The notes under the pieces: model-generated
What the model was told of the DNA's origin: nothing
Databases searched by the model: none
What the model saw: only the letters and a program-made list of their open reading frames with translations
Part shown: positions 35,873 through 51,885 of the stretch, in pieces
Layout: the number at the start of each line of letters is the position of its first letter
Numbering within the stretch: position 1 is the first letter of the stretch
Assembly (NCBI GenBank): GCA_965195285.1
Contig: CBDAFS010000041.1
Coordinates: 1 to 64,000, forward strand
Direction of reading: 5' to 3'
Source of the DNA: an uncultured Aminicenantes bacterium
GTDB taxonomy: Bacteria > Acidobacteriota > Aminicenantia > UBA2199
Length of the DNA: 64,000 nucleotides
Translations under genes and position numbers: made by a program

Positions 35873-35909
35873 TTGAGGTAAAGGTTAAGGTAGCGTAAAA
35901 TGCATACAC

Positions 35910-36601: not shown

Positions 36602-36799
36602 ATGAAAATCCTGATCAATGACCAGATGATTGAAATATTTGAAGGTGCCCGTCTGCAAGATGCGGTTCGCAAATATTCCGAAACAGAATTGAAACTGATC
36701 GAAAAAGAAGACAGAAAAATTGTTGACAGAGAGGGAAATCCCTTGGCCCTGGACGGAGAACTCTCAGATGGAGAATATTTTTATATTATAGAATGTTAA
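36602..36799 (+). CDS. Small hypothetical protein, possible beta-grasp (ThiS/ubiquitin-like) fold
   Basis: MKILIND..IEI..GARLQDAV...LDGELSDGE pattern; no C-terminal GG. Confidence 0.55.
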   Translation: MKILINDQMIEIFEGARLQDAVRKYSETELKLIEKEDRKIVDREGNPLALDGELSDGEYFYIIEC

Positions 36800-36948
36800 A
36801 AAACAAGCCTTTTATTGCCTTTTGATTCCTACCCTTCTTGTCTGTAATACCCCATAAGTTTTCGGCTTCCGAGCAATTATAATAAAACTGCTATGAAGAC
36901 GATAACAATAAAGTGATCCAATACCGGATCATTCAGAAGGAGATAAAA

Positions 36949-37242
36949 TTATTTACTGACTCGATCCTTTAGGGTTTTTCCGGCTTTGAAGGTCACATAA
37001 TTTTTGGCCGGAATCTGCATTTTCTGTCCGGTTTTTGGGTTAACTCCCATGCGGGCTTTCCGGGGAACAGTCTTAAAGGTTCCGAAACCGGGAATGGTGA
37101 CTTTCTTTCCCGCATCAAGCTCAACCGCGATGATCCCTTTTCCGGATTTGGCATTAAAAATAGAATCAACGGCTGCCTCAGAATCTTTTAAGGAAAGGCC
37201 GGTTTTTTTTGACAGTTTCTTAACAAGTTCTGTCTTGTTCAT
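36949..37242 (-). CDS. hup: HU family DNA-binding protein
   Basis: MNKTELV, IPGFGTF, RKARMGVNPKTG, FKAGKTLKD; GGAGG RBS. Confidence 0.95.
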   Translation of the reverse strand: MNKTELVKKLSKKTGLSLKDSEAAVDSIFNAKSGKGIIAVELDAGKKVTIPGFGTFKTVPRKARMGVNPKTGQKMQIPAKNYVTFKAGKTLKDRVSK

Positions 37243-37443
37243 ATTTTTACCTCCGTGTATTTAAAAAAATAAAAAAAATCCTTAACAATTGTCTTTCCCT
37301 GCTCCCCATGTTTCAATAAACAGGAAACAGTAAAATGTTTATTTTTACTTAATTCTTACTATAATAATAAAAGAAAAAACATTTTTTTCCAATAAAGAAA
37401 ATTATTTTTTTAAAATTTTTAATGGGAAAAGGGATTATTCTTT

Positions 37444-37773
37444 CTATTTCTTGTCTTTTGTTTTCGTGTTGCAGATTTTGCAGGGGGTATAACCTTGCTT
37501 GATGGCCTCGGCAAGATTCATTTCCTTGGCATCTTTTTTGATCATATGGCAACCTTTCTTATGGTATTTTTTTTCGCTGGCATTGACCAACACTTTGGTT
37601 TCTTCCTGGGCAATGGGTTTGCAGACTTTGCAGGGGGTGTAGCCTTTCTTAACGGCCTCACTCAGAGTAACCCGGGTTTTCCCGGTTTTTACCAGGCTGC
37701 AATTTTTCTTGTGATATTTTTTTCCGCCCTCTTTTATATATACATAGGTTTCCGATGATTTTTTTAAAGCTGA
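37444..37773 (-). pseudogene. 5'-truncated gene with two tandem Ada-type metal-binding domains (absent from the ORF track)
   Basis: Manual translation: ...YVYIKEGGKKYHKKNC...LSEAVKKGYTPCKVCKP...KKYHKKGC...LAEAIKQGYTPCKIC...TAG; no start codon ahead of the first domain, frame runs into the GGGGTC motif at 37774 and then a stop. Confidence 0.75.
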
Positions 37774-38857
37774 GGGGTCAAATCTTTATTATTGACAAAT
37801 AGAAATGAATTAAGACGCCTGGCAGGAGAACCATGGGTGACCCGGGAATAAAAAGTTACAGTCTCCTATTAATAACTTGAGCAATGGCTTTGATATATTC
37901 AGGTCCCATCCGGCAACACCCGCCAATAATATCAGCCCCAAGATCCAGCCATTCATCAACCATCAATTGGCAAAATGATAAATCAGAAGAACCTGACCAG
38001 GTTTTACTGGCTGCATGGTATATTTCTCCGGAATTGGGATAAACCACCACTTTTTTATCACCCGATTTCTCTTTAATTGCCCTGATCAATGGGGAAATTA
38101 AATTTGGTGCCGTACAATTGACACCAATAGCAAATACTCCTGGGTGAGAAGCAAAAAATGCAGCACAATCCTCTATGGGAGTTCCGTCATTCAGATGGCA
38201 TTCATCTTTACAGGAGAAAGACACCCAGGCCTGTTTTTTGGTATTCTTCAGGATTTCCGCCAATACCCTGGCTTCCTGAAAGCTTGGCATGGTCTCACAG
38301 GCAAAAAAATCTGCTCCCGACGTATCCAACAACTCAATTCTCGGTTGGTGAAATTCTGTAAGTTCCTCATCGGATAAACCGTAATGACCGCTATATTCCG
38401 AGCCATCAGACATAAAAGCGCCATATGGTCCAATACTGGCTGCCACCAGAGGCGAATAACTATTGGGTTGTGATGCCTCAAAATCTTTTATTGCCTCCTG
38501 GGCAAGGGTAACCGATTTTAGAATTAATGTTTCGGCTGTAGCCCGATCATGACCCAGAGCCAAAAAACCCGGAATGCTGGCCTGGTAGCTGGAAGTGATG
38601 ATGCATCGTGCACCCGTTTTTAGGTAAGCTAAATGGGCTTGCTTGATGGCCTCGGGATTAGAATCCAACAATCTGGCAGACCATAACCAATGATTCAGGT
38701 CACATCCCTGACTTTCCAGCTGGTTTGAGAGACCACCGTCTATCAATAATGGATATTTGATGTTCATTTGATTACAAAGAGTTTATTAAAATTTTTCAAA
38801 AATTTTTGACACAAATTTGACACAAATCAAAAATGTGGCAATGCAAGACCTGACCCC
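37774..38857. mobile_element. GGGG-bounded unit A: left motif, tRNA-Arg 3' fragment (37816-37849), mmuM, TGACACA direct repeats, right motif
   Basis: GGGGTCAAATCTTTATTATTGACA (37774, +) and GGGGTCAGGTCTTGCATTGCCACA (38857, -). Confidence 0.55.
37856..38767 (-). CDS. mmuM: Homocysteine S-methyltransferase
   Basis: LIDGGL, LWSA, AASIGPYGA, GSEY, GVNC, YPNSGE, IGGCC. Confidence 0.93.
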   Translation of the reverse strand: MNIKYPLLIDGGLSNQLESQGCDLNHWLWSARLLDSNPEAIKQAHLAYLKTGARCIITSSYQASIPGFLALGHDRATAETLILKSVTLAQEAIKDFEASQPNSYSPLVAASIGPYGAFMSDGSEYSGHYGLSDEELTEFHQPRIELLDTSGADFFACETMPSFQEARVLAEILKNTKKQAWVSFSCKDECHLNDGTPIEDCAAFFASHPGVFAIGVNCTAPNLISPLIRAIKEKSGDKKVVVYPNSGEIYHAASKTWSGSSDLSFCQLMVDEWLDLGADIIGGCCRMGPEYIKAIAQVINRRL

Positions 38858-38868
38858 ATTTATTTTTT

Positions 38869-39420
38869 TTAGTTGGGAACAGCTAATCCTCTTAACTTCC
38901 CTCCATTATCTCCCAGGATTATTGAAAAAAGAACACATATACCATTTAGGATCAAATACAACCATAAAGCCAAAGGAGCTTGGAACATGATCAATAAGGC
39001 CAGGATTGAGGAGAGGAGAAAAAAGAGTATGGCTACGGTGATCTTTAATTTTAAAATAGGGGTGTTTAATTTTTTAAATTGGGTTTTACCAACCAATAAT
39101 CCGGTTATTATTGCCCCTAATACCGATAAGGGTAAAAGAACTGAAAGAACCTGGCTGCACGATAAAAGATTGAATGGGCAAGGAAAAAACAAGATCAGGT
39201 GAAAGAACAGTAATCCCAAAATAATAACTGCAATTGCCTGGGGAAAATGAACCACCATAGAATGGAGATTTAAATCAAGAATTTTCCTCCTCTTTTCGGA
39301 AACTTTGTCATTATACCCTTCAAAGGCGTTTTTTGAAACTCCACAGGCAGGACAAAATTCCCCTAGTTTATGTTGATCAATAATAAATCCGCAGACTTTA
39401 CAAATAACTTTATTTTTCAT
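38869..39420 (-). CDS. Rubredoxin-like domain fused to DUF2231-like membrane domain
   Basis: CKVCG...CPACG; HSMVVHFPQA; four TM helices; GDNGGKL; AGGAG RBS. Confidence 0.75.
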   Translation of the reverse strand: MKNKVICKVCGFIIDQHKLGEFCPACGVSKNAFEGYNDKVSEKRRKILDLNLHSMVVHFPQAIAVIILGLLFFHLILFFPCPFNLLSCSQVLSVLLPLSVLGAIITGLLVGKTQFKKLNTPILKLKITVAILFFLLSSILALLIMFQAPLALWLYLILNGICVLFSIILGDNGGKLRGLAVPN

Positions 39421-39514
39421 CTCTCCTCCTATTTATTGTCTGAAATAGTAAATGATTCAAGATTCTTTTGCAAGTAAGTAAAAGTAATAAGGGGTGTAAA
39501 ATTTAGGAGTGTAA

Positions 39515-39673
39515 GGGGTGATATTGTTTGACAGTGTGACATTTATTTTTACAGCAGTTAGGAAAAGTAATTTAAAGGGTGAGGGAACCTGCACCTGGCA
39601 GGGATCGAACCTTTTTTTTATTTTTATTTAAAAAAAACGATAAGTGGATTTCAATACTTCAAAAGACCGTCCC
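39515..39673. repeat. GGG-bounded unit B containing tRNA-Arg 3' end (39591-39612)
   Basis: GGGGTGATATTGTTTGACAGTGTGACATTT (+), GCACCTGGCAGGGATCGAACCT (21/22 match to the tRNA), GGGACGGTCTTTTGAAGTATTGA (-). Confidence 0.7.
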
Positions 39674-40520
39674 TTTTTGTCCCTTTTTGTCTTTTTGTAA
39701 TATGACGCTCTAGACTGGATATGAATTTTTGTAATCCTGCGATATAAAGTTGTTCTGAAAGGATAACCCCTTCATTGTGACTCCCTCTAATTGAGAGAAA
39801 TTCTTTGGGGGAACGTGCAGAATCATAGAGTTTTTGACCGTTGCTATAGGAAATGATCTCATCATCCCGGCTATGAATAATCAGCACCGGGCAGTTGATT
39901 TTTTTTAAGTATTTTGATGTGTTATATTTAAAATGGGATAAAAGTTTAACTGGAAAAATCGGATATAGTTTTGCCCCCAACTCAGGGATTGAAGTAAAAG
40001 AAGATTCAACGATTAATCCTCTGGGATTATATTTTTGAGCTAGCCAGGCTGCTATTGATCCTCCCAGGGAGCGGCCAAAAACAATTATTTTATTGTTTGA
40101 AATCTTTAATTCATTTACCAGATAATTCCAGGCTGCCTCTGCATCCAGATATGTGCCCTTTTCAGTGGTTCGACCTTCACTCTGACCGTATCCTCGATAA
40201 TCGAATATGAAGGTGTTTAATTGAAGATGATGAAAAATTTTAATAGATTCGAGTCGATGGGAAATATTCCCGGCATTTCCATGACAGAATAAAATAGTTG
40301 CCTTTGGTTTTTTAGTGGGAATAAACCAGGCAGAAATTAACACATCATCAGAGGTTTTATAACATATTTCTTGATATTCCAGATTAATGCTTTTTGGGGT
40401 TTGCAAAATATCTCTTTTTGGAAAATAAACAAACCTGGATTGAAAGAAAAAAAGGTAGGCAACTAATACTATGTATATAAAAGCTGCTGAGATTACAATA
40501 GTAAAAAAAAATCGGGACAT
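39651..40520 (-). CDS. Alpha/beta hydrolase (ABHD13/17-like)
   Basis: CHGNAGNI, DYRGYG, GRSLGG nucleophile, HSRDDEI, GSHN. Confidence 0.92.
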   Translation of the reverse strand: MSRFFFTIVISAAFIYIVLVAYLFFFQSRFVYFPKRDILQTPKSINLEYQEICYKTSDDVLISAWFIPTKKPKATILFCHGNAGNISHRLESIKIFHHLQLNTFIFDYRGYGQSEGRTTEKGTYLDAEAAWNYLVNELKISNNKIIVFGRSLGGSIAAWLAQKYNPRGLIVESSFTSIPELGAKLYPIFPVKLLSHFKYNTSKYLKKINCPVLIIHSRDDEIISYSNGQKLYDSARSPKEFLSIRGSHNEGVILSEQLYIAGLQKFISSLERHITKRQKGTKRDGLLKY

Positions 40521-40639
40521 TGAATTTACCGTCAACTTAAAAAAATAATTTTACCAAATCAATAATAATAATATCTTTTGATATTATATCAGGAAAAATG
40601 AGTTGTTGCCAAAGAAACATAGAAAAATCGAGAAAAATC

Positions 40640-40906
40640 GGGGACGTTGCTTGACAGTGTGACATTTGTTTTTACAGCAGTGAGGAAAAGGTGTTTTAAA
40701 GGGGTAGGGGAAAACGCGCCTGGCAGGGAAACCATGGGTGGACCGGGATTAGGAAAACTATGTCCCAAAAAAAGAAAACCCTGAATTATCAATACTATAC
40801 AACGTTTTCAGGATTTCAAAGTTGAAAATTTGTGAAAAATTTTGTAAATATTTTGGCACAAATCTGGCACAATTATACAAAATGTAGCAATGCAAGTCTT
40901 GCCCTC
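40640..40906. repeat. GGGG-bounded unit C: tRNA-Arg 3' half (40715-40755) plus TGGCACA direct repeats
   Basis: GGGGACGTTGCTTGACAGTGTGACATTT (+); CGCGCCTGGCAGGGAAACCATGGGTGGACCGGGATTAGGAA; TTTTGGCACAAATCTGGCACAA; GAGGGCAAGACTTGCATTGCTACA (-). Confidence 0.75.
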
Positions 40907-41032
40907 ATCGATTTTTTCTCCTGGATTGAAGGTAGATTTTTTTTTGGATTTATCATGAGAATTTTGTAAATTTACAATAAAAATTCCAACTTTTTTAAGT
41001 TTTTTCGTAATAATAAATAGGGAAGAACCAAA

Positions 41033-42202
41033 ATGAAGTATCTATTTATGAAGAAGATAATGATGTTGATCATTTTTATTGTAATGACCTCTGTTTCCTG
41101 TGATAAAACCAATGATGAATGGGTCTATTCAGTGCCGGTAAATCACAACGATGGCTGGGAGACCGCTTCTGTGGAGGATGTCGGAATCAGTCTACAACCT
41201 CTCACTTCAATGATGAATTATTACAACACAATAGAACACAAGATCCACTCCATCCTGATTGTTAAAAACGGCAAACTTGTTTTTGAAGAGTATTTTCCGG
41301 GATATACTGTTGGCAGCAGCAGTAATGATTTTGAGGGGGATTACGTCACTTTTTCCTGGGATAGGGTTCATATAACGTGTTCGGTCACCAAAAGTTTTAC
41401 CTCTGCTCTGGTAGGGATCGCCATTGACAAAAAATTTATCAAAAATGAGAAGGTAACCATTTTTTCCTATTTCCCGGATTACAGCCACTTACAGGATAAG
41501 CAGAAAAACAAGATCACCATTGAACATCTGGTGACCATGACTGCAGGCCTGGAATGGGATGACAGTGAAGGCCCTGAATCAGACAGGAACCAAATATGGC
41601 AGGAGTCAGATCCCATTGGATTCATTCTTGACCGGCCGGTGGTGGATGAACCAGGCACAGTTTATTTATATTCCGGTGGAAATATCAACCTGGCCGGGGA
41701 GATCATTAAACGGGCCAGCGGGCTGGATGCTTCTGCCTTTTCCGGGGAACATCTGTTTAATCATCTGGGAGTTACCCAGTTCCAGTGGGGATATTATCAA
41801 AACAATGTTGTTCACTGCTCAGGTGACCTGTTTATCACCCCTCGCACTATGGCAAAATTCGGCACCCTTTTTCTCAATAAAGGGATCTGGAAGAACACAC
41901 GGATTATTTCAGAACAGTGGATAAACAAATCAGTATCCCCATATATTCAACTACCTCAGCCCAATAATTCTGTAACTCCTGCTGACTCCTATGGTTATGC
42001 CTGGTGGATCTATGATTACGAATTGGATGGCGGTTATAAGGTCCATTCCTATTCAGCCCGGGGTAGGGGCGGGCAGGATATCATCATGCTCCCGGTCCTG
42101 GATACAGTAGTTGTATTTACCCAGGGATATTACCTCACCCATTATCATCAGGCACAACATATTATGGATCGTTACATTCTGAAAGCAATTTTAAATATTT
42201 AG
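41033..42202 (+). CDS. Serine hydrolase, beta-lactamase/AmpC-like family (probable lipoprotein)
   Basis: SVTK (SxxK), ITIEHLVTMTAGL, PGTVYLYS, ARGRGGQ; lipobox-like SVSC. Confidence 0.9.
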   Translation: MKYLFMKKIMMLIIFIVMTSVSCDKTNDEWVYSVPVNHNDGWETASVEDVGISLQPLTSMMNYYNTIEHKIHSILIVKNGKLVFEEYFPGYTVGSSSNDFEGDYVTFSWDRVHITCSVTKSFTSALVGIAIDKKFIKNEKVTIFSYFPDYSHLQDKQKNKITIEHLVTMTAGLEWDDSEGPESDRNQIWQESDPIGFILDRPVVDEPGTVYLYSGGNINLAGEIIKRASGLDASAFSGEHLFNHLGVTQFQWGYYQNNVVHCSGDLFITPRTMAKFGTLFLNKGIWKNTRIISEQWINKSVSPYIQLPQPNNSVTPADSYGYAWWIYDYELDGGYKVHSYSARGRGGQDIIMLPVLDTVVVFTQGYYLTHYHQAQHIMDRYILKAILNI

Positions 42203-42321
42203 CTTAATGAAGATGCGATGAAAAAGGGGTCATATGGTGAGGGACGGTGCCTGACTTTATGACTTTATTGTCCATTCGATTAAGCATCATAAAATGGGGG
42301 CAGGTCACTTTGATAAAAATA

Positions 42322-42394
42322 CGCGCCTGGCAGGGATCGAACCTGCGGCACCGGGATTAGGAATCCCGCGCTCTATCCTCTGAGCTACAGGCGC
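42322..42394 (-). tRNA. tRNA-Arg(CCT)
   Basis: GCGCCTGTAGCTCAGAGGATAGAGCGCGGGATTCCTAATCCCGGTGCCGCAGGTTCGATCCCTGCCAGGCGCG folds as a full cloverleaf; TACAAT just upstream. Confidence 0.95.
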
Positions 42395-42412
42395 ATGGAG
42401 AGATTGTATCAA

Positions 42413-42571
42413 AGGTAGAGGTAAAGGTAAAGGTTGAGGTTAAGGTTGAGGGGAAAACGTAAATCGTGAGTCGTAAGTCGTGAATTGTAAGGCATTAGGG
42501 TAGGGGCGAATGGCAATTCGCCCTTTTTTATTGAATGGCTGTTATCCGGGCAAACCGTTGTTTGCCCCTAC
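42413..42571. repeat. (AGGTAA)n tract and REP doublet 42500-42571
   Basis: GTAGGGGCGAATGGCAATTCGCCC and GGGCAAACCGTTGTTTGCCCCTAC. Confidence 0.8.
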
Positions 42572-42603
42572 ATGATTATAATTGTTTTGAGATTGATCAG
42601 CAC

Positions 42604-43863
42604 TTAAAAATAAAACCTGAATGATGTGTATACCATATCCGGGTAGGCGCCGAATTCAGAGTGGAGCAGGGGTGAATTCTCTTCAAGTGGGTTCGGAACA
42701 TATTCGGGTTTTTTCCCCACTCCGATATAGGCCCCGGCAGCAATATAAATATTTTCGGCGATGTTGTATTCAACCTGAGGTGAAAATGAGAGGGACAAAT
42801 CACTGAGATTGGCCAGCAGGAATCCGGTGGCGGTGATCAGCCCCGTGATCTGTTTGGTGATTCCCAGACCCAGATAGTGTTTTCCTAATAAATAAACCGC
42901 TCCGTCTCTGAATGCCGGTGAATCAAGGATGTTTAGATAGTTTTCGGCCTGATTTTCTCCGGCCGAACTGTAGTGGTATTCCACAAATGTGTATACACCA
43001 CCCCTGAAATTGAAATCAAGACCGAAAGAAGCTCTGAAGTACGGATCTTCCTTTTCCGGTTCCGAGTTGAAGAAATCCGGTGACACATAGGCCATCTCCA
43101 GCCAGATACTGGCGCCTCCGACTGCCCGTGACAGATCGAAACCGATCAGCAGGTTTTCTCTGAAGGACATCAGCAGCAGACTCAGGTCAGTCTTCAGCAG
43201 ATAGGTCTTTCCCCTCAGGAAGAAGGCACTTTTATCGCCCCTGAAATCGTCACCGGCCACAAAGCCGATATCCAGTTCATCCATCATGCCCAGCGGGATT
43301 CTCACCCTCAGGGCATCCACTCCGCGGCGTTCTTCGGTGTCCAGTTCGTTGAAGCTGAAGGGGGCTATAACATCTGTCGGATTGATGATCCGGGCGCTTC
43401 CCCAGGCAATGGCCTGCCTCCCCAGAAAAATATCGCCGAATTTGAATTTAAGAGTAACATAAAAACGGTCCAGGTTTTGAAACAGCCCGAAACTTTCCGG
43501 AGTGATATCGGACCTGGGATAGATTTGAGAGGGAAAATCAGCAAACCGGTAGTCGAGCGGTTCGATTCCGAAGGAATAGATATCCTGATTGAAAAGACGT
43601 GAGTCCTGAATCCGGGGATAGATATCATAGGCCGTATGCAGCGAGAACCACTCGGCAGGTTTATACCTGATTTGAATCCGCAGCCGGTTATTGACCGCTC
43701 CCATATCCGGATCCTTCAGGCTTTCATCGCCCATCTGATAGCGGGGTTGAATAAGCAGGGTAGAAAAGTTTTTTACATAACCCGAAATTTCGAACGGATT
43801 TTCGGCTGAAGCAGGCAGGGCAATTAAAAGCAGGACAATCAGGATTTTCCAGGGACGTTGCAT
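42604..43863 (-). CDS. Putative outer-membrane beta-barrel protein of the ABC/LolA-like operon
   Basis: Signal peptide, LDR..., GRQAIAWG...NPTD motif, C-terminal FRFYF. Confidence 0.75.
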   Translation of the reverse strand: MQRPWKILIVLLLIALPASAENPFEISGYVKNFSTLLIQPRYQMGDESLKDPDMGAVNNRLRIQIRYKPAEWFSLHTAYDIYPRIQDSRLFNQDIYSFGIEPLDYRFADFPSQIYPRSDITPESFGLFQNLDRFYVTLKFKFGDIFLGRQAIAWGSARIINPTDVIAPFSFNELDTEERRGVDALRVRIPLGMMDELDIGFVAGDDFRGDKSAFFLRGKTYLLKTDLSLLLMSFRENLLIGFDLSRAVGGASIWLEMAYVSPDFFNSEPEKEDPYFRASFGLDFNFRGGVYTFVEYHYSSAGENQAENYLNILDSPAFRDGAVYLLGKHYLGLGITKQITGLITATGFLLANLSDLSLSFSPQVEYNIAENIYIAAGAYIGVGKKPEYVPNPLEENSPLLHSEFGAYPDMVYTSFRFYF

Positions 43864-43873
43864 GTTGATCCGT

Positions 43874-44575
43874 CTATTTTTTGCGAATGTCCTCAGATAT
43901 TTGACCGTCTTTCAGGGTGATCACCCGGGTGGCTTTTTCCATGACCATGGGGTCATGAGTGGAAAACAGAAAGGTCATTCCGGTGTTTTGATTCAGGGTG
44001 TGCATCATATCGATCAGGTTGGATCCGGTTTCCGAATCCAGATTGGCAGTCGGTTCATCAGCCAGAATAAGTGCTGGACGTGAGACCATGGCCCGGGCGA
44101 TGGCTACCCGCTGTTGTTGTCCGCCTGATAATTTGGGCGGGACTCGGCTCTCCATTTCAAGTAATCCTACCTGGTCCAGCATATTCCTGACCCGTTCATG
44201 CCGTTCCTCTTTTTTTATCCCCTGCAGCATCATGATGTATTCAACATTTTCACGTACCGTGAGGACAGGGATAAGGTTGTAGGCCTGAAAAATAAATCCG
44301 ATTTGATCCCGGCGAAAATCCGACAGCTGACGTCCGTTCATTTCAGATAGTGCATTTCCTTTCAACCATATTTTACCCGAGGTCGGGGTGTCCAATCCGG
44401 ATATAATATTGAGCAGAGTGGTTTTTCCAGATCCGGAGGGTCCTACAATGGCCGTGAACTCACCGGGTCCTATGGTCAGATTGACACCCCTGACCGCATG
44501 AACTTCCATGCCGTTATCCTGATAGGTTTTTTTCAGATCTTCTGTGATGATGATGAAATCATTTTGGCGATTCAT
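43874..44575 (-). CDS. LolD/MacB-type ABC ATP-binding protein
   Basis: [36 protein letters not shown]. Confidence 0.93.
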
Positions 44576-44589
44576 GGTTGTTCCTCCTG

Positions 44590-45822
44590 TTATAGGCTAC
44601 GACGGATGGCATCGGTTATTGACATGCGGGATGCCACTATTGCCGGATATATTCCCACCAGCAGGGTAAAAGCAAACAGCCCTGCGGGATAGATAATGAA
44701 TTGATAGATTTTCATGACCGGATAGAGTAAATCATTGAAGGTGGTACCGGCAAATTCAATTCCCCGGTAATCGATTCCGGTCTGGGCCATGATTCCGGTA
44801 ATAATCAGGCTTATAATAATGCCGATGACCGCACTGATTATTCCCAGAGAACCGGATTCGGCCAGCATCAGTTTAAACACTCCCCAGGGACGTGTTCCCA
44901 CTGCTCTGAGAATACCGAATTCAAAGAGACGCTCATAAAGGGACATAAACAGGGTATTGATAATCCCGAATATGACCACGATAATCAGCAGGAATGCCAG
45001 TATAACTTTGAATGCCCCGGTCATCTCAAACATGGTTTTGAGTTGGGGCAATAACTCCTCCCAGCTGATTGCTTTATTACCGTGATCGGAGAAGGTTTTC
45101 CAGAAAGGGAGATCTTCTTGGGAGGCATATTTTAATTGGCTGAATTTTATAGCGATTTCGTGGACTTGGTCCCCGATTCCCAGCATCTGCTGGGCAACTG
45201 GCAGGCGGATAAAGGCCATACCCTGGTCCATCTCTTTGATGGAAAAATGGTATATCCCGGAGACCCGGAACATTTCCTGGGAGAGATCTCCGCTGTGAGC
45301 GGTTGATACGGTTGCCACCAGTCGATCACCCAGTCCAATTTCAAGTATTTCAGCCAGTTTGCTGCCGATGACAATATCACGGGGATTGGCTTCGGAGAAA
45401 AAATTTCCCTCTTTGATAGCGTCATCGATCTTGGAAATGGCTCTTTCTCTCTGGGGATCGATTCCCACCAGCAGAACGGAATTCACATTGGCCGGAGAGG
45501 TGATCATGGCCATGGCCAGGGTGCGAGGACTGTAGCCTTCCACCAGGGGATCGGTTTTCAGGCCTTTGATCACCTCTTCTGATTGGTTGACGGTTAGAGT
45601 CGTATCGCGACTGGTTTGAAAACCCTCCCGGTGAATCTGGGCCTCTCCGATAAATGAATCGGTTGCCGAACGGATGGCCACATCTTCCATGCCGATAATC
45701 AGGCCGTCATAGAAGATCAGGCAGGCCAGGCCGATACCGATGGCAATTCCGGCGATGATGGTACGCCGCTTGTTGCGCAGAACGTTTCTCCAGGCAAGTT
45801 TGATATAAAACCACATAGTCAT
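44590..45822 (-). CDS. LolC/E-type (FtsX) ABC permease
   Basis: LAWRNVLRNKRRT, NTLFMSLYERLFEFGILRAVG. Confidence 0.9.
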   Translation of the reverse strand: MTMWFYIKLAWRNVLRNKRRTIIAGIAIGIGLACLIFYDGLIIGMEDVAIRSATDSFIGEAQIHREGFQTSRDTTLTVNQSEEVIKGLKTDPLVEGYSPRTLAMAMITSPANVNSVLLVGIDPQRERAISKIDDAIKEGNFFSEANPRDIVIGSKLAEILEIGLGDRLVATVSTAHSGDLSQEMFRVSGIYHFSIKEMDQGMAFIRLPVAQQMLGIGDQVHEIAIKFSQLKYASQEDLPFWKTFSDHGNKAISWEELLPQLKTMFEMTGAFKVILAFLLIIVVIFGIINTLFMSLYERLFEFGILRAVGTRPWGVFKLMLAESGSLGIISAVIGIIISLIITGIMAQTGIDYRGIEFAGTTFNDLLYPVMKIYQFIIYPAGLFAFTLLVGIYPAIVASRMSITDAIRRSL

Positions 45823-45829
45823 TTCTCCT

Positions 45830-47050
45830 TTAATGTATCCGCATCGATTTTGCAGCATCGGTCCGGGCTGCTTTTAAAGCCGGAAGGAATCCCACCACAA
45901 GTGACGATATCAGGATGGTAATAGCCGGGATATAGAAGCTGCGGGCATTGATTTCCGCCTTGAAGGTGTCGAAGGTCATGCCGCCATAGGAAAACTCCAT
46001 GCCCATATTGATGCCGTGGGTTGTCAGAATGCTGTTGATGATCCAGGCCATACCGAAACCGATAATGATCGAAAAGAAAGCCATGATGTTGACCTCGGTC
46101 ATGACCAGTTTAACGATTTGACTGGGCCGGGTGCCGATGGCTTTCAGTACCCCATACTCACGGGTTCGTTCCAGAACCGACATTAAAACCGTGTTCAATA
46201 CGCCGACTGCCACGATCAATACGATGATCACCAGCGAGATCCACATACCTTCCATATCCGCCTTCATGGCCAGGTAGAAGGACCGGGCAAATACCTGCCA
46301 GGGATTGACCGACAGTTCAGGTCTGTTTATTAATGTTGAAATGGTATCGGTCATCGGTTTTACCTTATTCAGATGACCGATGTTAATGGCAATTTCATGG
46401 ATCCGGTTTCCCAGTACCAGCAATTCCTGGGCATCTTGTATGTGTAGATAGAATGATATGCGATCTGACATCAGGTCGCCGGAATCGACCAGACCTACTA
46501 TGGTGTAGCGATCGTTGGCAATTGAACCATCGGCTCCCTGGGAGACAATGACAATGTCGTCCCGGACATCGGCATTGAGTAATTTGGCCAGCTCTTTTCC
46601 CAGCAGAACCTGATGGTCGGCACGGTTGGAGAAGTATTGTCCCTGGGAGACCTTTTTATGAAACTGGGTGGTCATTTGTTCGCGGGTTGGGTCGATACCG
46701 ATGATGCGAACGCCGGCACTTTTTTCCTTGACCGAGACCAGACCGGCCGAATACACCCGGGGTGCAAACGAATCGATTTCAGTCAGTGTCTGAAGCTGAT
46801 TTTGAATGCCTGAATAATCATTGATGGTTTTGTAGAGGGATGGACGGTCCAGGTAATGTTGTTCATGGATCTGGATGTGACCGAAGTTGTGGCGGGTAAA
46901 GTTATCGATGATATGGTTGTAGCTCCCATCGGCCCAGCCGATAAACACAGCAGCCATCACAAATCCGCCGAACATGCTCAAAATGGTGAGAATGGTCCGG
47001 CGCTTCTGCCGAAAAATGTTGCGGAAAGCGATTTTAAGCAGCATGATCAA
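45830..47050 (-). CDS. LolC/E-type (FtsX) ABC permease
   Basis: IAFRNIFRQKRRT, NTVLMSVLERTREYGVLKAIG. Confidence 0.9.
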   Translation of the reverse strand: MIMLLKIAFRNIFRQKRRTILTILSMFGGFVMAAVFIGWADGSYNHIIDNFTRHNFGHIQIHEQHYLDRPSLYKTINDYSGIQNQLQTLTEIDSFAPRVYSAGLVSVKEKSAGVRIIGIDPTREQMTTQFHKKVSQGQYFSNRADHQVLLGKELAKLLNADVRDDIVIVSQGADGSIANDRYTIVGLVDSGDLMSDRISFYLHIQDAQELLVLGNRIHEIAINIGHLNKVKPMTDTISTLINRPELSVNPWQVFARSFYLAMKADMEGMWISLVIIVLIVAVGVLNTVLMSVLERTREYGVLKAIGTRPSQIVKLVMTEVNIMAFFSIIIGFGMAWIINSILTTHGINMGMEFSYGGMTFDTFKAEINARSFYIPAITILISSLVVGFLPALKAARTDAAKSMRIH

Positions 47051-47811
47051 ATCCTTGAGCGCAGGTTTCTCAGACTAAAGGTGTCGTCCGGAATCTTGAT
47101 GTCAAAGCGGGCTTCAATGTAGCGGACAAGCGTCCTGTTTCCCTCTTTATGGGTCGATATGAGTTCCATGACCGATGGTATGGTTCGGTCATCAAATGTT
47201 TTTATGCCCCGATAAACCATTTCTCGCATTAACTTTCCTCTTTCATCATAATATTTCTGCCAGACTGGAAGATAGTCATTTTTCCTGACAGCGATGATAA
47301 CATATCCCCAAACGATTGGACGGTCCTTTTTGGGAATGCATTTGATATATATTTCCCCCGGCTTCGGATCGTCTATAGCTGTCATTTCAAAATGGTAATC
47401 CTTGAGAAAGGTATATTCTTTAACCAGGTCGTCGTTGGTGAAATCCGAACCCATCCAGGAGCTCATCATCATCGAGGGTGGAATTTTCATGACTTTATTG
47501 GTCTTGGGAAGAAAGTTCCACATTTCGTTTCCGATACGTAGTGTGGTCATGCCCTGTTCCTTTTTGGGTTCAAGAATGCGGATAAATGTATTTTCCGCTC
47601 CCTTACTCCAGATATTGATCTTTAGTGTCCGTTTCCAGTGGGGAGTAACGATTTCCATTTCAACCAGGGCCATGCTGGAATCACTGCGATAAAGTTCATC
47701 TACTCTTCTCAATATTTCGATCGCATCCTGGGTTTGACCTGCACCCAGGGACGCCGAAGATATGAAACTGAAGAGGATGAAACACAATATAACTGCGATC
47801 GATGCTTTCAT
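47047..47811 (-). CDS. Outer-membrane lipoprotein-sorting protein (LolA-like)
   Basis: Signal peptide; MWNFLP, SWMGSDFTNDDL, FSLRNLR. Confidence 0.85.
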   Translation of the reverse strand: MKASIAVILCFILFSFISSASLGAGQTQDAIEILRRVDELYRSDSSMALVEMEIVTPHWKRTLKINIWSKGAENTFIRILEPKKEQGMTTLRIGNEMWNFLPKTNKVMKIPPSMMMSSWMGSDFTNDDLVKEYTFLKDYHFEMTAIDDPKPGEIYIKCIPKKDRPIVWGYVIIAVRKNDYLPVWQKYYDERGKLMREMVYRGIKTFDDRTIPSVMELISTHKEGNRTLVRYIEARFDIKIPDDTFSLRNLRSRI

Positions 47812-47878
47812 GATTTTTCTCCTTGTAGATAAAATAAATTGAAAGGCAATCCTGATTTATATTTTTTTGACATTTGTT

Positions 47879-48496
47879 TCATCTTATGGAAATTCCCTCC
47901 AGAACCATACGAACCATCTCTTTCATGGTTTTGTCAAAATCAATGGTTTTATCCAAGAGCCACTGGACCATGATGCCATCATTCATGCCCAGAATTATTA
48001 TAGCCATGTTCTTGGCATCCAGGTCTTTTCTGAAACTGCCTTCTCTGATTCCATCTTTTATCAGGTCCTCACACAATTTTCTGTAGGCCTGGTAAAAGAT
48101 GTTCATTTCCTTGAACAGGATGTTTTTTGCCTGAATGTTTTTGATGCTCTCCGCCCAGAAATCAAATATCAATTCCATGAGTTGCCTGTTTTCGGGTAAT
48201 TGCATGGTTCGGGTAAAGGCATCGAAAACCTGCTTGAGTTTTTCAATGGAGGGGAGAGAGGATAGCAGGATCTCTTCAAAATCAAACTCGAGTTCTTTTA
48301 TGAAAAAGTAAAAGGAATTATTAATGATTTCATCTTTGGTTTCGAAATAATCATAGATAGTACCCTTCCCGGTTCCGGCAGCTTCGGCAATATCACTGAT
48401 AGTTGTGCGGGAAAATCCCTTTTGGGCAAATAATTTGATGGCTGCCCTGATAATCAATTCCTTTTTTTCTTTTTTATCAACAATTTTTGCGCTCAT
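47879..48496 (-). CDS. TetR/AcrR family transcriptional regulator
   Basis: LFAQKGFSRTTISDIAEAAGTGKGTIYDYFETKDE HTH. Confidence 0.93.
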   Translation of the reverse strand: MSAKIVDKKEKKELIIRAAIKLFAQKGFSRTTISDIAEAAGTGKGTIYDYFETKDEIINNSFYFFIKELEFDFEEILLSSLPSIEKLKQVFDAFTRTMQLPENRQLMELIFDFWAESIKNIQAKNILFKEMNIFYQAYRKLCEDLIKDGIREGSFRKDLDAKNMAIIILGMNDGIMVQWLLDKTIDFDKTMKEMVRMVLEGISIR

Positions 48497-48506
48497 TGTA
48501 TTTATT

Positions 48507-48526
48507 ATGACCGACTGGTCGGTCAT
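48507..48526. promoter_or_regulatory. Putative TetR operator
   Basis: Palindrome ATGACCGAC-TG-GTCGGTCAT 10 bp upstream of the TetR start. Confidence 0.75.
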
Positions 48527-48613
48527 TTATACCATTGTGATATTAAATGTGAAATATTTCAAGTGAAAATTGAAAAAAAATATATTTATTAGAAAAAGAA
48601 AATAAAAAAAGGA

Positions 48614-48756
48614 GTGGACGTTGCTTGACAGTGTGACATTTTGTTTTTTATTTGATTTAGGGAAAGAATTTAAAAGAGTAGGGGAAACGCGCCTGGCAGG
48701 AGAACCATGGGTGGCACCGGGATTCTTAATGAATGCAAAATATAAGACCTGATCCC
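48614..48756. repeat. GGG-bounded unit D containing tRNA-Arg 3' fragment (48688-48724)
   Basis: GTGGACGTTGCTTGACAGTGTGACATTT (+); CGCGCCTGGCAGGAGAACCATGGGTGGCACCGGGATT; GGGATCAGGTCTTATATTTTGCA (-). Confidence 0.75.
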
Positions 48757-48804
48757 AATATTACAATATTAACTAAATGTCGAGATCAGATAAAAATATT
48801 TATT

Positions 48805-50370
48805 TTAAACTCTTTTTGGAAGTTTTTGTCCTGATGGAGTCATAGCCAGACCCCCAAGAGCCGTACAACGTAGCTCTGATGGCAACATTTTCCCGACTGA
48901 ATATACGGCATCAATGGTTTCATCCAGAGGAATGGGATTTATATATCCGCCTAAAATAAGGTCAGCACAAACAAATGCCGAAGAGGCAGCTACTGCATTT
49001 CGGGTATGGCAGGGTATCTCACAGATCCCCTGGACAAGATCACAGACGGAACCCATTGTATTCTGAAAAGCGATGGCTGCAGAATCACAGGCTTGTTTGG
49101 CATTTCCGCCTGCACTTTCGATAACAGCAGCTGCAGCCATGGCGCCGGCTGTTCCGATTTCCACCTGACATCCGGCAATTTCAGCAGCAAAAGTGGCTCG
49201 CCTGGCAACAATTAAACCGATAGCAGAGGCGGCAAACAAAGCCCGGGCTATTTGTTTGGGTTTCATTTTTTTTTCATCAGCCAGAGAGGTGATCACTCCG
49301 GGGATAGTTCCTGCCGAGCCTCCGGTTGGGGCCGCACAAACAATTCCCATACTGTTATTAATATGCATCACGGCCATAGCTCTGGCTGCAGCCCGAGTAT
49401 GAAGACCGCCTATGGCAAGGCCCCCCATATTCTCCTTTCTGATTATTTCAGAAGCAGTCGGTTGCAGGAGCTGCATCTGGACATTATTTATATCAAGTCC
49501 CCGGTATACGGATTCCTGCATGATTCTATACCGGTAAATCATCTCGTCAAGAGCACTTTTTTTTGATATTCCGAGAAGATTCGCTTCATAAACCAGAGCA
49601 ATTTCTCCCAATGATTGAGCTTGTTTTTCGGCCGTGCGGATCATTTCGCGGGCACTTACAAACAATTCTTTGCCTTTTTTGACTTTGAAAACTGGAGAAG
49701 TTGTCCAAATTTTTTTGATCCCTTCTAATGAATCTATTTTAATTTTATCTTTTTGGGATATTCGATTTTCAAATCGAGCTACAATAACTTTCTCATTTTT
49801 CTGATCAGAAATATCAGGAGAATCTATTAGACCAGCCATTTTTTTTATTCGTGATATCAATTTCCTGGAATCTTTGTGGCAAATAATTACATATTCTACT
49901 GCTTTGCCAGAGAGGAGGACGTTATAACCATTGAGACGGGTAATTTTGATCATTCCTCCTCCGATTGATTGGGCTTCGACAGTGAGTTTTTGATTGCTTT
50001 TTCCGGTTATTTCTATCAGTACAAAGTTGGGATGACTGGCCTGTTTCAATTCGGATATCTTGAAATTAATTTTCCAGCCTTTTTTTTCTGCTATTTTAAG
50101 GGCCTGAAAAAAAAGATCATCCGTTAAGGATAAACCAAGAAGCCCGCTTATCAGAGCAAGATCAACACCCTGTTCCCGGAAAACCCGGGCATAAGAACTG
50201 TCGGGATCAAAAGTAAATTCAATTGCTGTTGGATCCTCTTCAATCATAGAATAAACCAGTCGGCCGATATGATAGGATCCGGCTGTATGAGAACTTGAAG
50301 GTCCCCGCATTACCGGACCCATTACATCATTGAAGATACTGATAAATACCATGCTTTTGCCCGATAACAA
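48805..50370 (-). CDS. Fe-S L-serine dehydratase, fused beta-ACT-alpha type
   Basis: GPVMRGPSSSHTAG, SIGGG, AAPTGGSAG, AGCQVE, GSVCD...EIPC, ELRCTALGGL. Confidence 0.9.
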   Translation of the reverse strand: MLSGKSMVFISIFNDVMGPVMRGPSSSHTAGSYHIGRLVYSMIEEDPTAIEFTFDPDSSYARVFREQGVDLALISGLLGLSLTDDLFFQALKIAEKKGWKINFKISELKQASHPNFVLIEITGKSNQKLTVEAQSIGGGMIKITRLNGYNVLLSGKAVEYVIICHKDSRKLISRIKKMAGLIDSPDISDQKNEKVIVARFENRISQKDKIKIDSLEGIKKIWTTSPVFKVKKGKELFVSAREMIRTAEKQAQSLGEIALVYEANLLGISKKSALDEMIYRYRIMQESVYRGLDINNVQMQLLQPTASEIIRKENMGGLAIGGLHTRAAARAMAVMHINNSMGIVCAAPTGGSAGTIPGVITSLADEKKMKPKQIARALFAASAIGLIVARRATFAAEIAGCQVEIGTAGAMAAAAVIESAGGNAKQACDSAAIAFQNTMGSVCDLVQGICEIPCHTRNAVAASSAFVCADLILGGYINPIPLDETIDAVYSVGKMLPSELRCTALGGLAMTPSGQKLPKRV

Positions 50371-50636
50371 GTTATCACAAAAGGATTAAAAAGGAAATTA
50401 GTAAAAAAATCGGGATCAGGTCTCTTCATGACAAAAAAATGAAAAAATGAAAAAATGAAAAAATGGGGACGAAAAAATGGGGACGGTGCTTGACTATTTG
50501 ACTTTTTCAAATCTTCTTCCTGCTTCTGAAAAAGAACCTGTAAAAAAGTGGGGTGGATGCTTTAAAACCTGTTAATATCGAATATTATGATTAAATAATC
50601 AACGTTGAACCTTGAACATTGAATGTGGAACTTAAA

Positions 50637-50708
50637 CGCGCCTGGCAGGAAAACCATGGGTGGACCGGGATTAGGGATCCCGCGCTCTATCCTCTGAGCT
50701 ACAGGCGC
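50637..50708 (-). pseudogene. Degenerate full-length copy of tRNA-Arg(CCT)
   Basis: Identical acceptor and D arms; anticodon loop TCCCTAA (U33 to C); T-arm replaced by TCCACCCATGGTTTT; TGCTATAAT upstream. Confidence 0.85.
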
Positions 50709-50841
50709 AAGGGGATATTATAGCAAAATTTCCCTTCCAAGTCACGGCAGGCATTACGAAATACTACCATTCTGGTAGCATATTGTGTTATAATAGCGGG
50801 AAGTTGTTTTGAAAATACCATTTTCGCCAGAGGAGGTTAGA

Positions 50842-51393
50842 ATGCTCAAAAGGATTTTTATTTTAATATTGATTGTGTTATTCATTTTGGTCATGTTCTC
50901 TTGCAAGACCGGGAGTGATGTTGACAACCAGGATGATCAGGATACCGATCCGGTGATCGGGGTTTATCTCAATAACATTACCGTAAATTTCATTGAGAAC
51001 GATCAAAACGGAGGCAGTTTTAACCTGGAATCTTTGAAGGGCAAAGTCATTATGCTGGTATTCAGTGCCATGTGGTGCAGCCCCTGCCGTACGGAGGCTT
51101 CAAAATTAATGGAATTGTACAATACCTATAAGGAAAGGGGACTGGAGGTTGTGCAGTGTATTTACCAGGATGAAGATTCCAATCCTGCTGACCTGAGTGA
51201 TATCAAACGCTGGGTTCAGGAATTCAATATCGGTTTTATTGTGGTCAATGATCCGGACTATTCAACCGTTAACACCTATAATTTCAGTTCCATTCCTTTC
51301 AATGTCATCGTTGACCGGGACTTTATCATCAGATACCGGGTTTCCGGATTTAATGAACAGGCGGTTAAAAACGTTATCGAAGACTATCTCTGA
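50842..51393 (+). CDS. TlpA-family thioredoxin-like lipoprotein
   Basis: Lipobox FSC, WCSPC, SIPF; GAGGAGG RBS. Confidence 0.9.
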   Translation: MLKRIFILILIVLFILVMFSCKTGSDVDNQDDQDTDPVIGVYLNNITVNFIENDQNGGSFNLESLKGKVIMLVFSAMWCSPCRTEASKLMELYNTYKERGLEVVQCIYQDEDSNPADLSDIKRWVQEFNIGFIVVNDPDYSTVNTYNFSSIPFNVIVDRDFIIRYRVSGFNEQAVKNVIEDYL

Positions 51394-51395
51394 AA

Positions 51396-51884
51396 ATGAA
51401 AAGAATCGGTTTTTTCCTTCTGGTATTCTGGCTGTTTGGTTCTCAAATCCAGGCCGTGACTGTAACCGATTTCAGCCTGAAAAAAATGGATGGTGATTTT
51501 TTTAAACTAAGCGAGCACCTGGGCAGTAAGATCATTGTCATTGATTTCTGGGCCTTCTGGTGCAAACCCTGCAAGAAGTTGTTAAAACGATTGAACACCA
51601 TCCAGAAACAATACCGGGGACAGGTTGAGGTACTGGCCATTTCAATAGATGAGGCCTCGGCTTTTTCCACGGTTGAGAGTTACATCAAGGCCAGGAGATT
51701 TGAATTTACGGTGTTGTTTGATGCGGAAAACAAAGTGGCTCGCTTGTACAATCCCACCCTGAAAATCCCCTTTACCATGATTGTAGACTATCAGGGCAAT
51801 ATTGTCTATGTCCATACCGGGTACATTCCCGGAGTGGAAAGTGAGATTGAAGATAAAATAAAGAATATTCTCAGTTCAAAGTAA
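51396..51884 (+). CDS. TlpA-family thioredoxin-like protein
   Basis: Signal peptide, IDFWAFWCKPC, AISID, IPF. Confidence 0.9.
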   Translation: MKRIGFFLLVFWLFGSQIQAVTVTDFSLKKMDGDFFKLSEHLGSKIIVIDFWAFWCKPCKKLLKRLNTIQKQYRGQVEVLAISIDEASAFSTVESYIKARRFEFTVLFDAENKVARLYNPTLKIPFTMIVDYQGNIVYVHTGYIPGVESEIEDKIKNILSSK

Positions 51885-51885
51885 C

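Follow-up and report, generated by a model that had tools for sequence, protein, structure and literature searches.

The DNA examined here is the first 64 kb of the 88.6-kb contig C41 (the window) in the 3.28-Mb draft genome of an uncultured Aminicenantes bacterium (G000; 62 contigs, 94.9% complete). Within 13 kb of it, six copies of a tRNA-Arg(CCT) sequence stand in the same orientation, separated by short runs of genes. On balance, we think that this array is probably an integrase-less, largely fossil set of islands that was built by accretion at the anticodon loop of the tRNA gene. Judged from their sequence, the tRNA-derived units look like junctions left by tyrosine integrases whose crossover point is the anticodon loop, and most of the observations can be explained if islands targeted to the tRNA accreted and then decayed. 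The array is unusual in its small, numerous modules that carry neither an integrase nor a remnant of one, in the propagation of a dead half of the tRNA and the relocation of its live copy, and in about 75 nt of common flank past the tRNA end, with REP-like repeats embedded in the units.

ARAGORN calls one intact tRNA-Arg(CCT) in the window (42321-42395, minus strand), the sole tRNA-Arg(CCT) among the genome's 47 tRNAs. A repeat finder and alignment place five more copies in the same orientation, at 37811-37852, 39591-39612, 40712-40753, 48685-48726 and 50634-50709 (Table 1; each is named below by its first coordinate). The six co-oriented copies reported in the first-pass annotation of this DNA are therefore confirmed by ARAGORN, the repeat finder, alignment and Rfam. 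Four of them carry a derived block, GCCTGGCAGG-NN-AACCATGGGTG, in the place of the T-arm (A-type below). A genome-wide search with the pattern GCCTGGCAGG-N(1-4)-AACCATGGGTG returned four occurrences in 3.28 Mb, all in the array, and none for the reversed control, and the shared AACCATGGGTG block upholds the earlier proposal that these four copies descend from one altered ancestor. The grouping of the fragments needs one amendment: they are indeed co-oriented copies, but u39591 bears a normal T-arm and is a different, T-arm-type junction. This fragment is 19-22 nt long overall, with 19 nt that are 100% identical to tRNA positions 52-70, and the REP-like block on its 5' side also precedes a T-arm-type tRNA-Lys fragment on contig C15.

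Each unit may be read as an att junction. In the direction of the tRNA it would begin with a P-arm; the anticodon loop follows as the core, then a tRNA 3' half brought in by the element, the flank downstream of it and, lastly, a REP-like repeat. The window's sole complete P-core-P' junction is u40712, which matches the tRNA in two blocks parted by the 12-nt A-type replacement of the T-arm. The first block is the final 13 nt of the tRNA (the 3' acceptor/T-stem strand); the second covers the 3' strand of the anticodon stem and then the loop, and stops exactly at the 5' edge of the latter. Just two copies of the 14-mer TTCCTAATCCCGGT lie in the window, one in u40712 (40742-40755) and one in the intact tRNA (42350-42363). 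Integration sites in tRNA genes are said to fall into sublocation classes, reportedly set out by Williams in 2002.

By contrast with these fragments, u50634 has full length: tRNA positions 1-46 (45/46 identical, with U33 changed to C) are followed by an A-type half. Rfam scores it as a weak tRNA (50637-50708; 33.2 bits vs. 67.6 for the intact gene), ARAGORN makes no call, and its predicted fold is a cloverleaf without a T-arm. Its make-up, with the first part of the tRNA joined to an A-type half, is what would be expected of an attL hybrid. A functional tRNA was not regenerated at u50634, where the T-arm is lost, and function is retained by the separate intact copy.

Only one of the five array modules, that of the serine hydrolase, has identical cores on both sides. 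This module keeps attL/attR-type sites: its 14-nt cores have the P-arm on one side and the P' flank on the other, with no recombinase between them. The remaining modules have degenerate sites, and three of the four fragments lack a P-arm directly at the core. Because the serine-hydrolase module alone keeps two identical cores, the array is probably mostly inert now, and any leftover mobility would need an integrase acting in trans.

Table 1. Positions in the window of the tRNA-derived units, their arms, flanks and repeats, and the genes between them.
Feature	Position	Strand	Basis or remark
REPa-type short dispersed repeat (GGGGTCAAATC...TTGACAA)	37774-37798	+	5 genome copies at <=4 mismatches
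u37811, degenerate tRNA-Arg(CCT) 3' half with A-type T-arm block; anticodon-loop part decayed	37811-37852	-	repeat finder, alignment, motif search
Homocysteine S-methyltransferase (mmuM-like)	37856-38767	-	PF02574, E = 2.9e-76
Distal part of P-arm-like motif (ATTAAAATTTTTCAAAAATTTTTGACACAAATTTGACACAA)	38775-38825	+	motif match; L044 homology ends inside
REPb-type short dispersed repeat	38834-38857	-	10 genome matches at <=4 mismatches
Rubredoxin-like-domain protein, 35.7% GC	38869-39420	-	PF21349, E = 1.6e-7
REP-L copy, degenerate, in the leader of u39591	39517-39544	+	repeat finder
u39591, short T-arm-to-3'-end fragment with normal T-arm; distinct junction type	39591-39612	-	alignment
REP-like variant (GGGACGGTCTTTTGAAGTATTGAAAT) on the opposite side of u39591	39648-39673	-	alignment
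Alpha/beta hydrolase, 35.4% GC	39651-40535	-	PF12146 + PF00561
REP-L copy in the leader of u40712	40640-40667	+	repeat finder, genome matches
Spacer ending in AAAGGGGTAGGGGAAAACG	40668-40711	+	equals G003 flank downstream of intact tRNA
u40712, A-type 3' half with intact anticodon-loop core (TTCCTAATCCCGGT)	40712-40755	-	repeat finder, alignment
P-arm, conserved, ending in TTGGCACAAATCTGGCACAA	40756-40872	+	72.5-84% identical to arms by tRNA-Arg(CCT) halves in G001, G002, L044
Beta-lactamase-family serine hydrolase	41033-42202	+	PF00144; identical 14-nt cores at 40742-40755 and 42350-42363
REP-L' copy, 55 nt past the tRNA 3' end	42240-42266	+	repeat finder, genome matches
tRNA-Arg(CCT), intact, the genome's only one	42321-42395	-	ARAGORN, Rfam 67.6 bits
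Six-gene operon: TetR, LolA-like, 2 x FtsX/MacB-type permease, ABC ATPase, unknown 419-aa protein	42604-48526	-	Pfam
REP-L copy in the leader of u48685	48614-48641	+	repeat finder
u48685, A-type 3' half, tRNA identity ending inside the anticodon loop; no P-arm	48685-48726	-	repeat finder, alignment
L-serine dehydratase (sdaA)	48805-50370	-	PF03313, E = 1.2e-56
REP-L' copy after (AAAAAATG)n partial duplications	50479-50505	+	repeat finder, genome matches
Flank F (TTGAAC-type repeats)	50506-50633	+	77-81% identity to flank of tRNA halves in G001:C126, L041
u50634, hybrid pseudo-tRNA, 5' part tRNA and 3' part A-type	50634-50709	-	Rfam, alignment, folding

The arm beside u40712 ties the array to a recognizable integrase island. 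Its motif, TTG[AG]CACAAA-N-TG[AG]CACAA, belongs to the same family as the motifs that flank, on either side, a roughly 10-kb island at tRNA-Arg(TCG) on contig C43. There the tRNA is followed 50 nt on by the arm and then by a 368-amino-acid (aa) PF00589 integrase, with helix-turn-helix, SMC-like ATPase, DUF4145 and YaaC-like genes; at the far end the arm appears again, and after it the stretch of the tRNA between anticodon stem and 3' end is repeated perfectly over 47 nt. The arm also stands before a tRNA-His half on C62 and after tRNA-Ala at the end of C41. Outside tRNA genes, the genome has 17 tRNA-fragment matches. Most are 3' pieces, 38-54 nt long and 100% identical, with their first base at one of tRNA positions 22-38. 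Such a pattern is characteristic of attP sites centred on the anticodon, which passages of the Islander description give as one of its two large classes. Outside the genus, adjacency of integrases to tRNA-Arg(CCT) was examined in two genomes of two other genera in the family (G013 and G022), both of which carry homologues of the C43 integrase (29-31% identity) 150-410 nt past the 3' end of that tRNA.

The array itself has no such gene. The first-pass annotation had noted the absence of a recombinase in cis, and this holds for the whole contig: C41 gave zero matches to PF00589 (in a six-frame search), PF00239 or PF01797, DDE transposases not having been searched for. None of the five tRNA-to-fragment intervals holds an integrase by Pfam or by the PF00589 search. 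The genome is poor in integrases: its six PF00589 matches comprise two Xer-like proteins, two of full length (on C43 and C3) and two fragments, and none adjoins the array. A serine recombinase was dropped as the candidate enzyme, with zero PF00239 matches in the whole genome, as was a phage origin of the C43-type integrase, for which no relative was found among viral contigs.

Similar loci occur elsewhere in the same genome. Two intervals, C62:9930-18324 at tRNA-His (8.3 kb) and C55:75100-80953 at tRNA-Val (5.7 kb), each run from a tRNA to an exact repeat of its 3' half (42-47 nt) and lack a PF00589 match; they carry genes for Ser/Thr kinases (one of 422 aa and a 1202-aa STAND-type protein), HEAT-repeat proteins and tricorn-like proteases. 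The tRNA-His repeat runs about 110 nt past the tRNA and takes in a REP-like copy. On C50, a PF00589 fragment lies in an 86-aa open frame (38930-39085) by tRNA-Glu (39221), whose 3' half is repeated 8 kb off at 30986-31029; this looks like an island caught losing its integrase. At C32:25792-26031, C32:29165-29404 and C43:62156-62395 are three tRNA-Arg(TCG) 3' halves in which an insert of about 85 nt that contains a hairpin (...CCATGATTCACCTCAAAGTGAATCAGCATG...), the same in each case, stands at the anticodon loop between the half and its P-arm.

To follow the array among relatives, we compared three congeners (G001, G002 and G003, 70-91% complete; G001 is a metagenome-assembled genome, MAG, with 3% contamination), the metagenome contigs L041-L043 and the genome contig L044. 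With the 258-nt unit as query (E <= 1e-5), the unit family was found in 4/4 genomes of the genus and in 0/68 genomes of 17 other genera in the family. The derived A-type motif, when searched for in other assemblies, is present in L041-L043 and in L044 as well. The last of these, 5.7 kb at 84-91% identity to parts of the array, is probably mis-binned, since no other window-like contig lies in its Anaerolineales-titled MAG, and no taxonomy is drawn from it.

The comparison advised by the earlier reading shows that cargo has turned over among relatives, and in G001, G002, L041 and L044 it differs exactly at unit boundaries. The 5' half of the tRNA has different partners in different genomes. In G003, the order is kinase, intact tRNA and AhpC/TSA; from 50634 rightwards the window is colinear with it (93.5% identity), and the intact tRNA has the position of u50634. 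The tRNA also lies beside AhpC in G011 and G024, which belong to other genera. Given this AhpC-side context in G003, G011 and G024, the dead hybrid u50634 appears to sit at the ancestral tRNA site. The tRNA of G001 stands between a kinase gene and the efflux operon, which is 76% nucleotide-identical to and syntenic with that of G000, and in G002 the tRNA adjoins the AMP-binding gene that sits at 53.4 kb in the window. The partners are thus AhpC (u50634 of G000, and G003), the efflux operon (G000 and G001) and the AMP-binding gene (G002).

The other boundaries behave likewise. Across the assemblies, both normal and A-type halves are found next to the P-arm, and three types of flank follow them. 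Between the tRNA and the first P-arm lies a serine hydrolase in G000, an ankyrin protein with a 159-aa open reading frame (ORF) in G002 (whose arm at that slot is 83% identical to the window arm) and nothing in G003 or on G001:C71. To the left of flank F and REP-L' stands sdaA in G000, a SpoIIE/GAF gene in L041 (with its G000 orthologue on C20) and a SecDF-like ORF in G001:C126. Between G000 and L044, identity of 91% covers the mmuM module, beginning at the tRNA-like 3' end and stopping within the arm, and the neighbours on both sides are unrelated; in the adjoining slot of L044 there is an alpha/beta hydrolase unrelated to that of G000 (27% identity in a local alignment of 88 residues), and G003 has mmuM without a tRNA piece. 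The kinase flank of G001 exists in two forms, with a full tRNA (C71) vs. a tRNA half plus P-arm (C261). Such combinatorial flanks indicate that exchange occurred at the cores.

We propose that elements integrated site-specifically, time after time, in the anticodon loop of tRNA-Arg(CCT) and so built a tRNA-seeded genomic island whose modules have each since been left without an integrase, much like cis-mobilizable elements (CIMEs). One element lineage would have borne the non-functional, A-type 3' half. Recombination of such an element with the chromosomal tRNA beside the AhpC/TSA genes could have produced the dead hybrid at 50634-50709 (B-core-P'), with the live tRNA now 8.3 kb further on and linked to the efflux operon. 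This live gene, at 42321, may be the reciprocal product (P-core-B'), in which case the element must also have brought along a 5' half of the tRNA and some 18 nt upstream of it. Alternatively, the linkage of efflux operon and tRNA, as in G001, may be the older one, and the hybrid may have come from an exchange between two cores. Downstream of the tRNA, u40712, u39591 and u37811 would mark other insertions, as would u48685 upstream, and core exchange over time would have placed different genes beside the same units in different genomes. The pattern of identity, the homology of the arms, the mosaic of flanks, the lack of recombinase genes and the REP family are observed, whereas catalysis by an integrase, this order of events and the present inactivity are what we infer.

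Several observations weigh against this reading. No integrase gene or detectable remnant was found in the array or on C41 by the six-frame PF00589 search, and the three congeners, at 70-91% completeness, show just two Xer-like integrases each. An intact tRNA within the array demands an element that carried the tRNA 5' half. Modules of 0.9-3 kb between units recur in G000, G001:C126, L042/L043 and L044, so that, if large islands had simply decayed, many internal deletions would have had to be clean and to leave both arms in place. The shared flank of about 75 nt past the tRNA end in three units is not predicted by simple serial integration, and the reading offers no explanation for the source of the A-type block. 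Finally, the enrichment of REP-like repeats 3' of tRNA ends, described below, leaves room for a role of Y1 enzymes.

Regarding the A-type block, the 12-nt replacement is by eye not the reverse, complement or reverse complement of the normal T-arm. On G001:C126 (L028), at 8260-8345, a tRNA-Arg(CCT) 3' half has a T-loop insertion of 66 nt that includes two small hairpins; it sits where the copies in the window have the A-type replacement. Our guess would be that the A-type block is the scar of a small insertion.

The recurrence of small modules could instead reflect an active non-autonomous cassette system, which we regard as possible but not probable. Here, one-to-few-gene modules, each with a tRNA-like core and conserved P and P' arms, would be the usual mobile unit of the genus and form an integron-like stack seeded by tRNA-Arg(CCT), and an enzyme in trans (for example, a C43-type tyrosine integrase or one in the unassembled 5% of the genome) would cut them out and insert them at any core. 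Both arms around the core are kept at 72-84% identity where coding DNA is 76-91% identical, integrase-less small modules occur in four assemblies, and the same unit has combinatorial partners. The tRNA-His and tRNA-Val intervals of G000 (8.3 and 5.7 kb, with perfect 42-47-nt halves and no PF00589) would suit such a system, as would the restriction of the unit family to the genus (4/4 genomes vs. 0/68 of 17 other genera). The two forms of the G001 kinase flank, with full tRNA (C71) and with P-arm plus half (C261), are what an insertion polymorphism would give, but they could instead be a mixture of strains in a MAG with 3% contamination. Yet only one of the five modules in G000 has identical cores; the core of u50634 has a mismatch, u48685 is cut in the loop and u37811 is degenerate, and three of the four fragments have no P-arm directly at the core. 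Moreover, no partner integrase specific to tRNA-Arg(CCT) was found in the genus, and the C43 arm is too diverged from the window arm for a unit match at E <= 1e-5.

A stronger version of this idea strikes us as more doubtful still. It holds that the genus has non-autonomous modules, still active, that a tyrosine integrase in trans stacks and shuffles at tRNA genes, with a deliberately non-functional half and a REP-like site as parts of the P' arm. We are just as hesitant about the corollary that such modules are a tRNA-seeded, duplex-site analogue of the integron that relocates the live tRNA instead of regenerating it in place. The gene-capture interpretation put forward in the first-pass annotation is partly sustained: the common ancestor, the lack of a cis recombinase and the turnover of cargo stand, whereas the substitute for attC does not and most cores have decayed. 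A dedicated capture system with its enzyme in trans is possible.

The flank shared by the units bears on a different explanation. The leader described earlier is real, since the 63 nt at 39517-39579 match those at 40640-40702 with 83% identity and both can be aligned with 48607-48702, but it is a composite of flank and a dispersed REP-like repeat. Its tRNA-proximal part (AAAGGGGTAGGGGAAAACG) is the flank found downstream of the intact tRNA in G003, and its distal part is a REP-L copy (GGGGACGTTGCTTGACAGTGTGACATTT). The leader part TTGACAGTGTGACATTT belongs to a dispersed family whose degenerate 15-nt core matches 51 times genome-wide, and a variant of the same family, REP-L', stands beside the two full-length tRNA copies. 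REP-L-family repeats are about 27 nt long, lie in intergenic DNA and have no obvious palindrome; none of the predicted folds has a hairpin in the REP portion of a unit, REPs having been folded only within units. Inverted REP-L-family pairs bracket Y1_Tnp (IS200-like) genes on C12, C21, C26, C27 and C49, the genome having 17 Y1_Tnp matches, with none on C41. In G002, an inverted pair of the REPa 25-mer flanks a 328-aa Y1_Tnp gene on C195, and two REPb copies flank the 159-aa ORF beside the tRNA. Within 200 nt past the 3' end, 7 of 63 tRNA genes or fragments have REP-like repeats, always in the same orientation, against an expectation of 0.003 per site (about 0.2 in total).

These repeats would be central if no site-specific recombination had taken place, and segmental duplication and homologous recombination around the tRNA, with reshuffling by REP/IS200-like elements (Y1/RAYT-type), had carried the tRNA pieces along as passengers. 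The 51 genome matches of the repeat within the leader, the 17 Y1_Tnp matches (at least five bracketed by inverted REP pairs) and the position of u39591 within an inverted REP pair are consistent with this. So too are the REPs that abut P-arms lacking a tRNA piece (G002:C195, C31 at 15.4 kb and the window at 38.8 kb) and the duplications that overrun the tRNA by about 18 nt on the 5' side and about 75-110 nt on the 3' side. However, identity boundaries fall exactly at the anticodon loop in u40712 and many other fragments, which is a tyrosine-integrase signature; the arm is common to a bona fide integrase island; and integrases lie at tRNA-Arg(CCT) in related genera. We also know of no Y1 enzyme that duplicates its target or moves flanking genes in this manner. 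Taken together, we consider this explanation unlikely.

Further features of the repeats were seen along the way. The Y1_Tnp matches of G000 are mostly open frames of about 300-330 aa, each apparently with its own flanking-repeat subtype, and one G002 homologue also has a weak DnaA_C-like helix-turn-helix. At 50434-50480 and 40620-40642, partial tandem duplications precede the 5' (GGGG) end of the REP-like repeats, for example (AAAAAATG)x4 and then GGGGACG AAAAAATG GGGGACGG. The same pattern is found at many other REP-like copies in the genome, as if left by an insertion process.

The units are repeats, at which unitigs break, and the draft has 62 contigs. We mapped the contigs of four sequencing runs (X18, X2, X3 and X5) onto positions 35500-52500, disregarding joints with sides of 21-25 letters as repeat matches. 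Contigs of X18, a run from another study with a depth of about 340-370, span the entire stretch at about 99% identity, and array content is unchanged in this near-identical strain. Single X18 pieces bridge u37811, u48685 and the junction of REP-L' with the tRNA 3' end. The same array with contigs across three units argues against misassembly, and a collapse or chimera at repeated tRNA-like sequences, to which such a draft is prone, is very improbable given this coverage and the same unit architecture in independent assemblies. None of the joints listed for the four runs matches the excision of a module or an empty site; because contigs drop rare variants, this is uninformative about mobility. 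One X18 joint runs from 48724 to 40766 with 15 other letters between, and looks like an additional A-type-plus-P-arm unit elsewhere in the X18 genome, seen in that run alone. A joint in X3, from 38858 to 42323, is the G002-like arrangement. Cold-seep and sediment runs, with their small shares, enter into no statement on habitat.

Turning to the cargo, Pfam agrees with the genes first named here, apart from their number per interval, their orientation and their base composition. The intervals had been described as single genes, mostly AT-rich and in either orientation. Instead, one holds two genes and another, between the intact tRNA and u48685, the six-gene TetR/LolA-like/FtsX/ABC efflux operon; 4/5 intervals, with 11/12 genes, are co-oriented with the tRNA; and two genes are clearly AT-rich (35.4-35.7% GC vs. 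a genome mean of 42.2%), the rest being at 39-49%. We also considered the units as promoters of the cargo and dropped this, as sigma-70-like sites are not enriched (38 vs. 31.8 +/- 5.8 in shuffles) and the arm is oppositely oriented relative to mmuM vs. the serine hydrolase. A structured RNA was likewise dropped: at E <= 0.1, Rfam found nothing over 35000-53000 beyond the tRNA and the pseudo-tRNA.

Among known systems, the array is close to the islands that tyrosine integrases with an anticodon-centred attP form at tRNA genes, as defined by the Islander principle, with a tRNA and co-oriented, displaced 3' fragments, identity that starts from the anticodon loop, an att region of roughly 250 bp with arms, and element-borne copies of the tRNA 3' half. 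It differs in that all five intervals lack an integrase, the shortest being 1.1 kb, and in that the element-borne half is non-functional. According to passages of the Islander description, candidates without an integrase or below 2 kb are rejected, and tandems of at least three occurred just 4 times among 3919 islands. The array thus fails these rules on both counts, having no integrase per interval and intervals below the minimum size.

The accretion-and-decay route of integrative elements offers a second match. As summarized in sections of a later article (PMC5704250, citing Pavlovic 2004 and Bellanger 2011), CIMEs have lost their integration genes, keep attL and attR, form tandem stacks at the 3' end of a target gene and are mobilized in trans, or in cis with a neighbour. 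By contrast, the array modules consist of one to six housekeeping-type genes, and no conjugation or mobilization genes or remnants of them, and no functional partner element, were seen within the array. Sections of a report on Prochlorococcus (10.1101/2020.12.28.424599) describe tRNA-side islands that grow by successive integrations that push older elements inward, with partial tRNAs and degenerate elements scattered among small sets of adaptive genes. The array shares with these tycheposon islands its partial tRNAs, degenerate elements and small gene sets at a tRNA. However, hallmark tycheposon genes were not seen in it, its host belongs to a lineage of marine-sediment MAGs, and its units contain a REP-like repeat and an altered tRNA half.

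An integron consists of intI, attI and attC cassettes, its attC sites being imperfect inverted repeats that form single-stranded hairpins. The array likewise is a one-directional stack of mostly co-oriented small modules with a repeated site-like unit and cargo that varies between relatives. Nevertheless, no intI was found (no PF00589 match on C41, and none of the six elsewhere in the genome adjacent to it), several modules have apparent promoter-like sites of their own, and its site has arms around a duplex core, the tRNA anticodon loop, without attC-like hairpins. Compared with shuffled sequence, none of the four fragment units folds better (z = +1.34, +1.64, -0.15 and +0.25). The suggestion that a tRNA-derived unit substitutes for attC was therefore rejected, as the units do not fold, intI is absent and the sites have the ordinary att anatomy of a tyrosine integrase in the anticodon loop.

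REP elements, REP-associated tyrosine transposases (RAYTs) and REPIN doublets are the closest comparison for the repeats; in such systems, the RAYT recognizes a hairpin formed by the REP. Here too, an intergenic repeat of about 27 nt is dispersed, and inverted pairs flank IS200-like Y1 genes, which we call RAYT-like from their Pfam matches. Unlike REP elements, the repeat is not obviously palindromic and is enriched in fixed orientation 3' of tRNA genes and halves.

If it is only a fossil, the array is a clean example of how a tRNA gene may seed a small flexible region in an uncultured sediment bacterium, and one of a kind that is missed by island finders that demand an integrase or a minimum size. 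The dead hybrid tRNA and its relocated live copy suggest that integration need not regenerate its target in place. Were the modules still moved by an enzyme in trans, integron-like stacking would have evolved from ordinary tRNA att sites, with gene-by-gene turnover in the absence of a linked recombinase. The REP-like repeats at tRNA 3' flanks offer a separate lead on the targets of Y1 elements.

Some minor repeats complete the description of the region. Directly 5' of the intact tRNA, at 42404-42460, hexamer-periodic AAGGTn repeats (AAAGGTAGAGGTAAAGGTAAAGGTTGAGG...) are found, with an inverted copy at 36103-36124, and AAGGTn-like runs also lie upstream of the tRNA in G001, G002 and G003. A dispersed repeat of about 140 nt at 36000-36140 has copies of 79-90% identity on C16 (two), C44, C30 and C55, and similar ones in G001-G003. 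An 87-aa ORF that lacks a Pfam match (37495-37758) and lies between the array and the HU gene contains a 41-nt direct repeat (37469-37509 and 37619-37659), the two copies of which are 85% identical and 150 nt apart.

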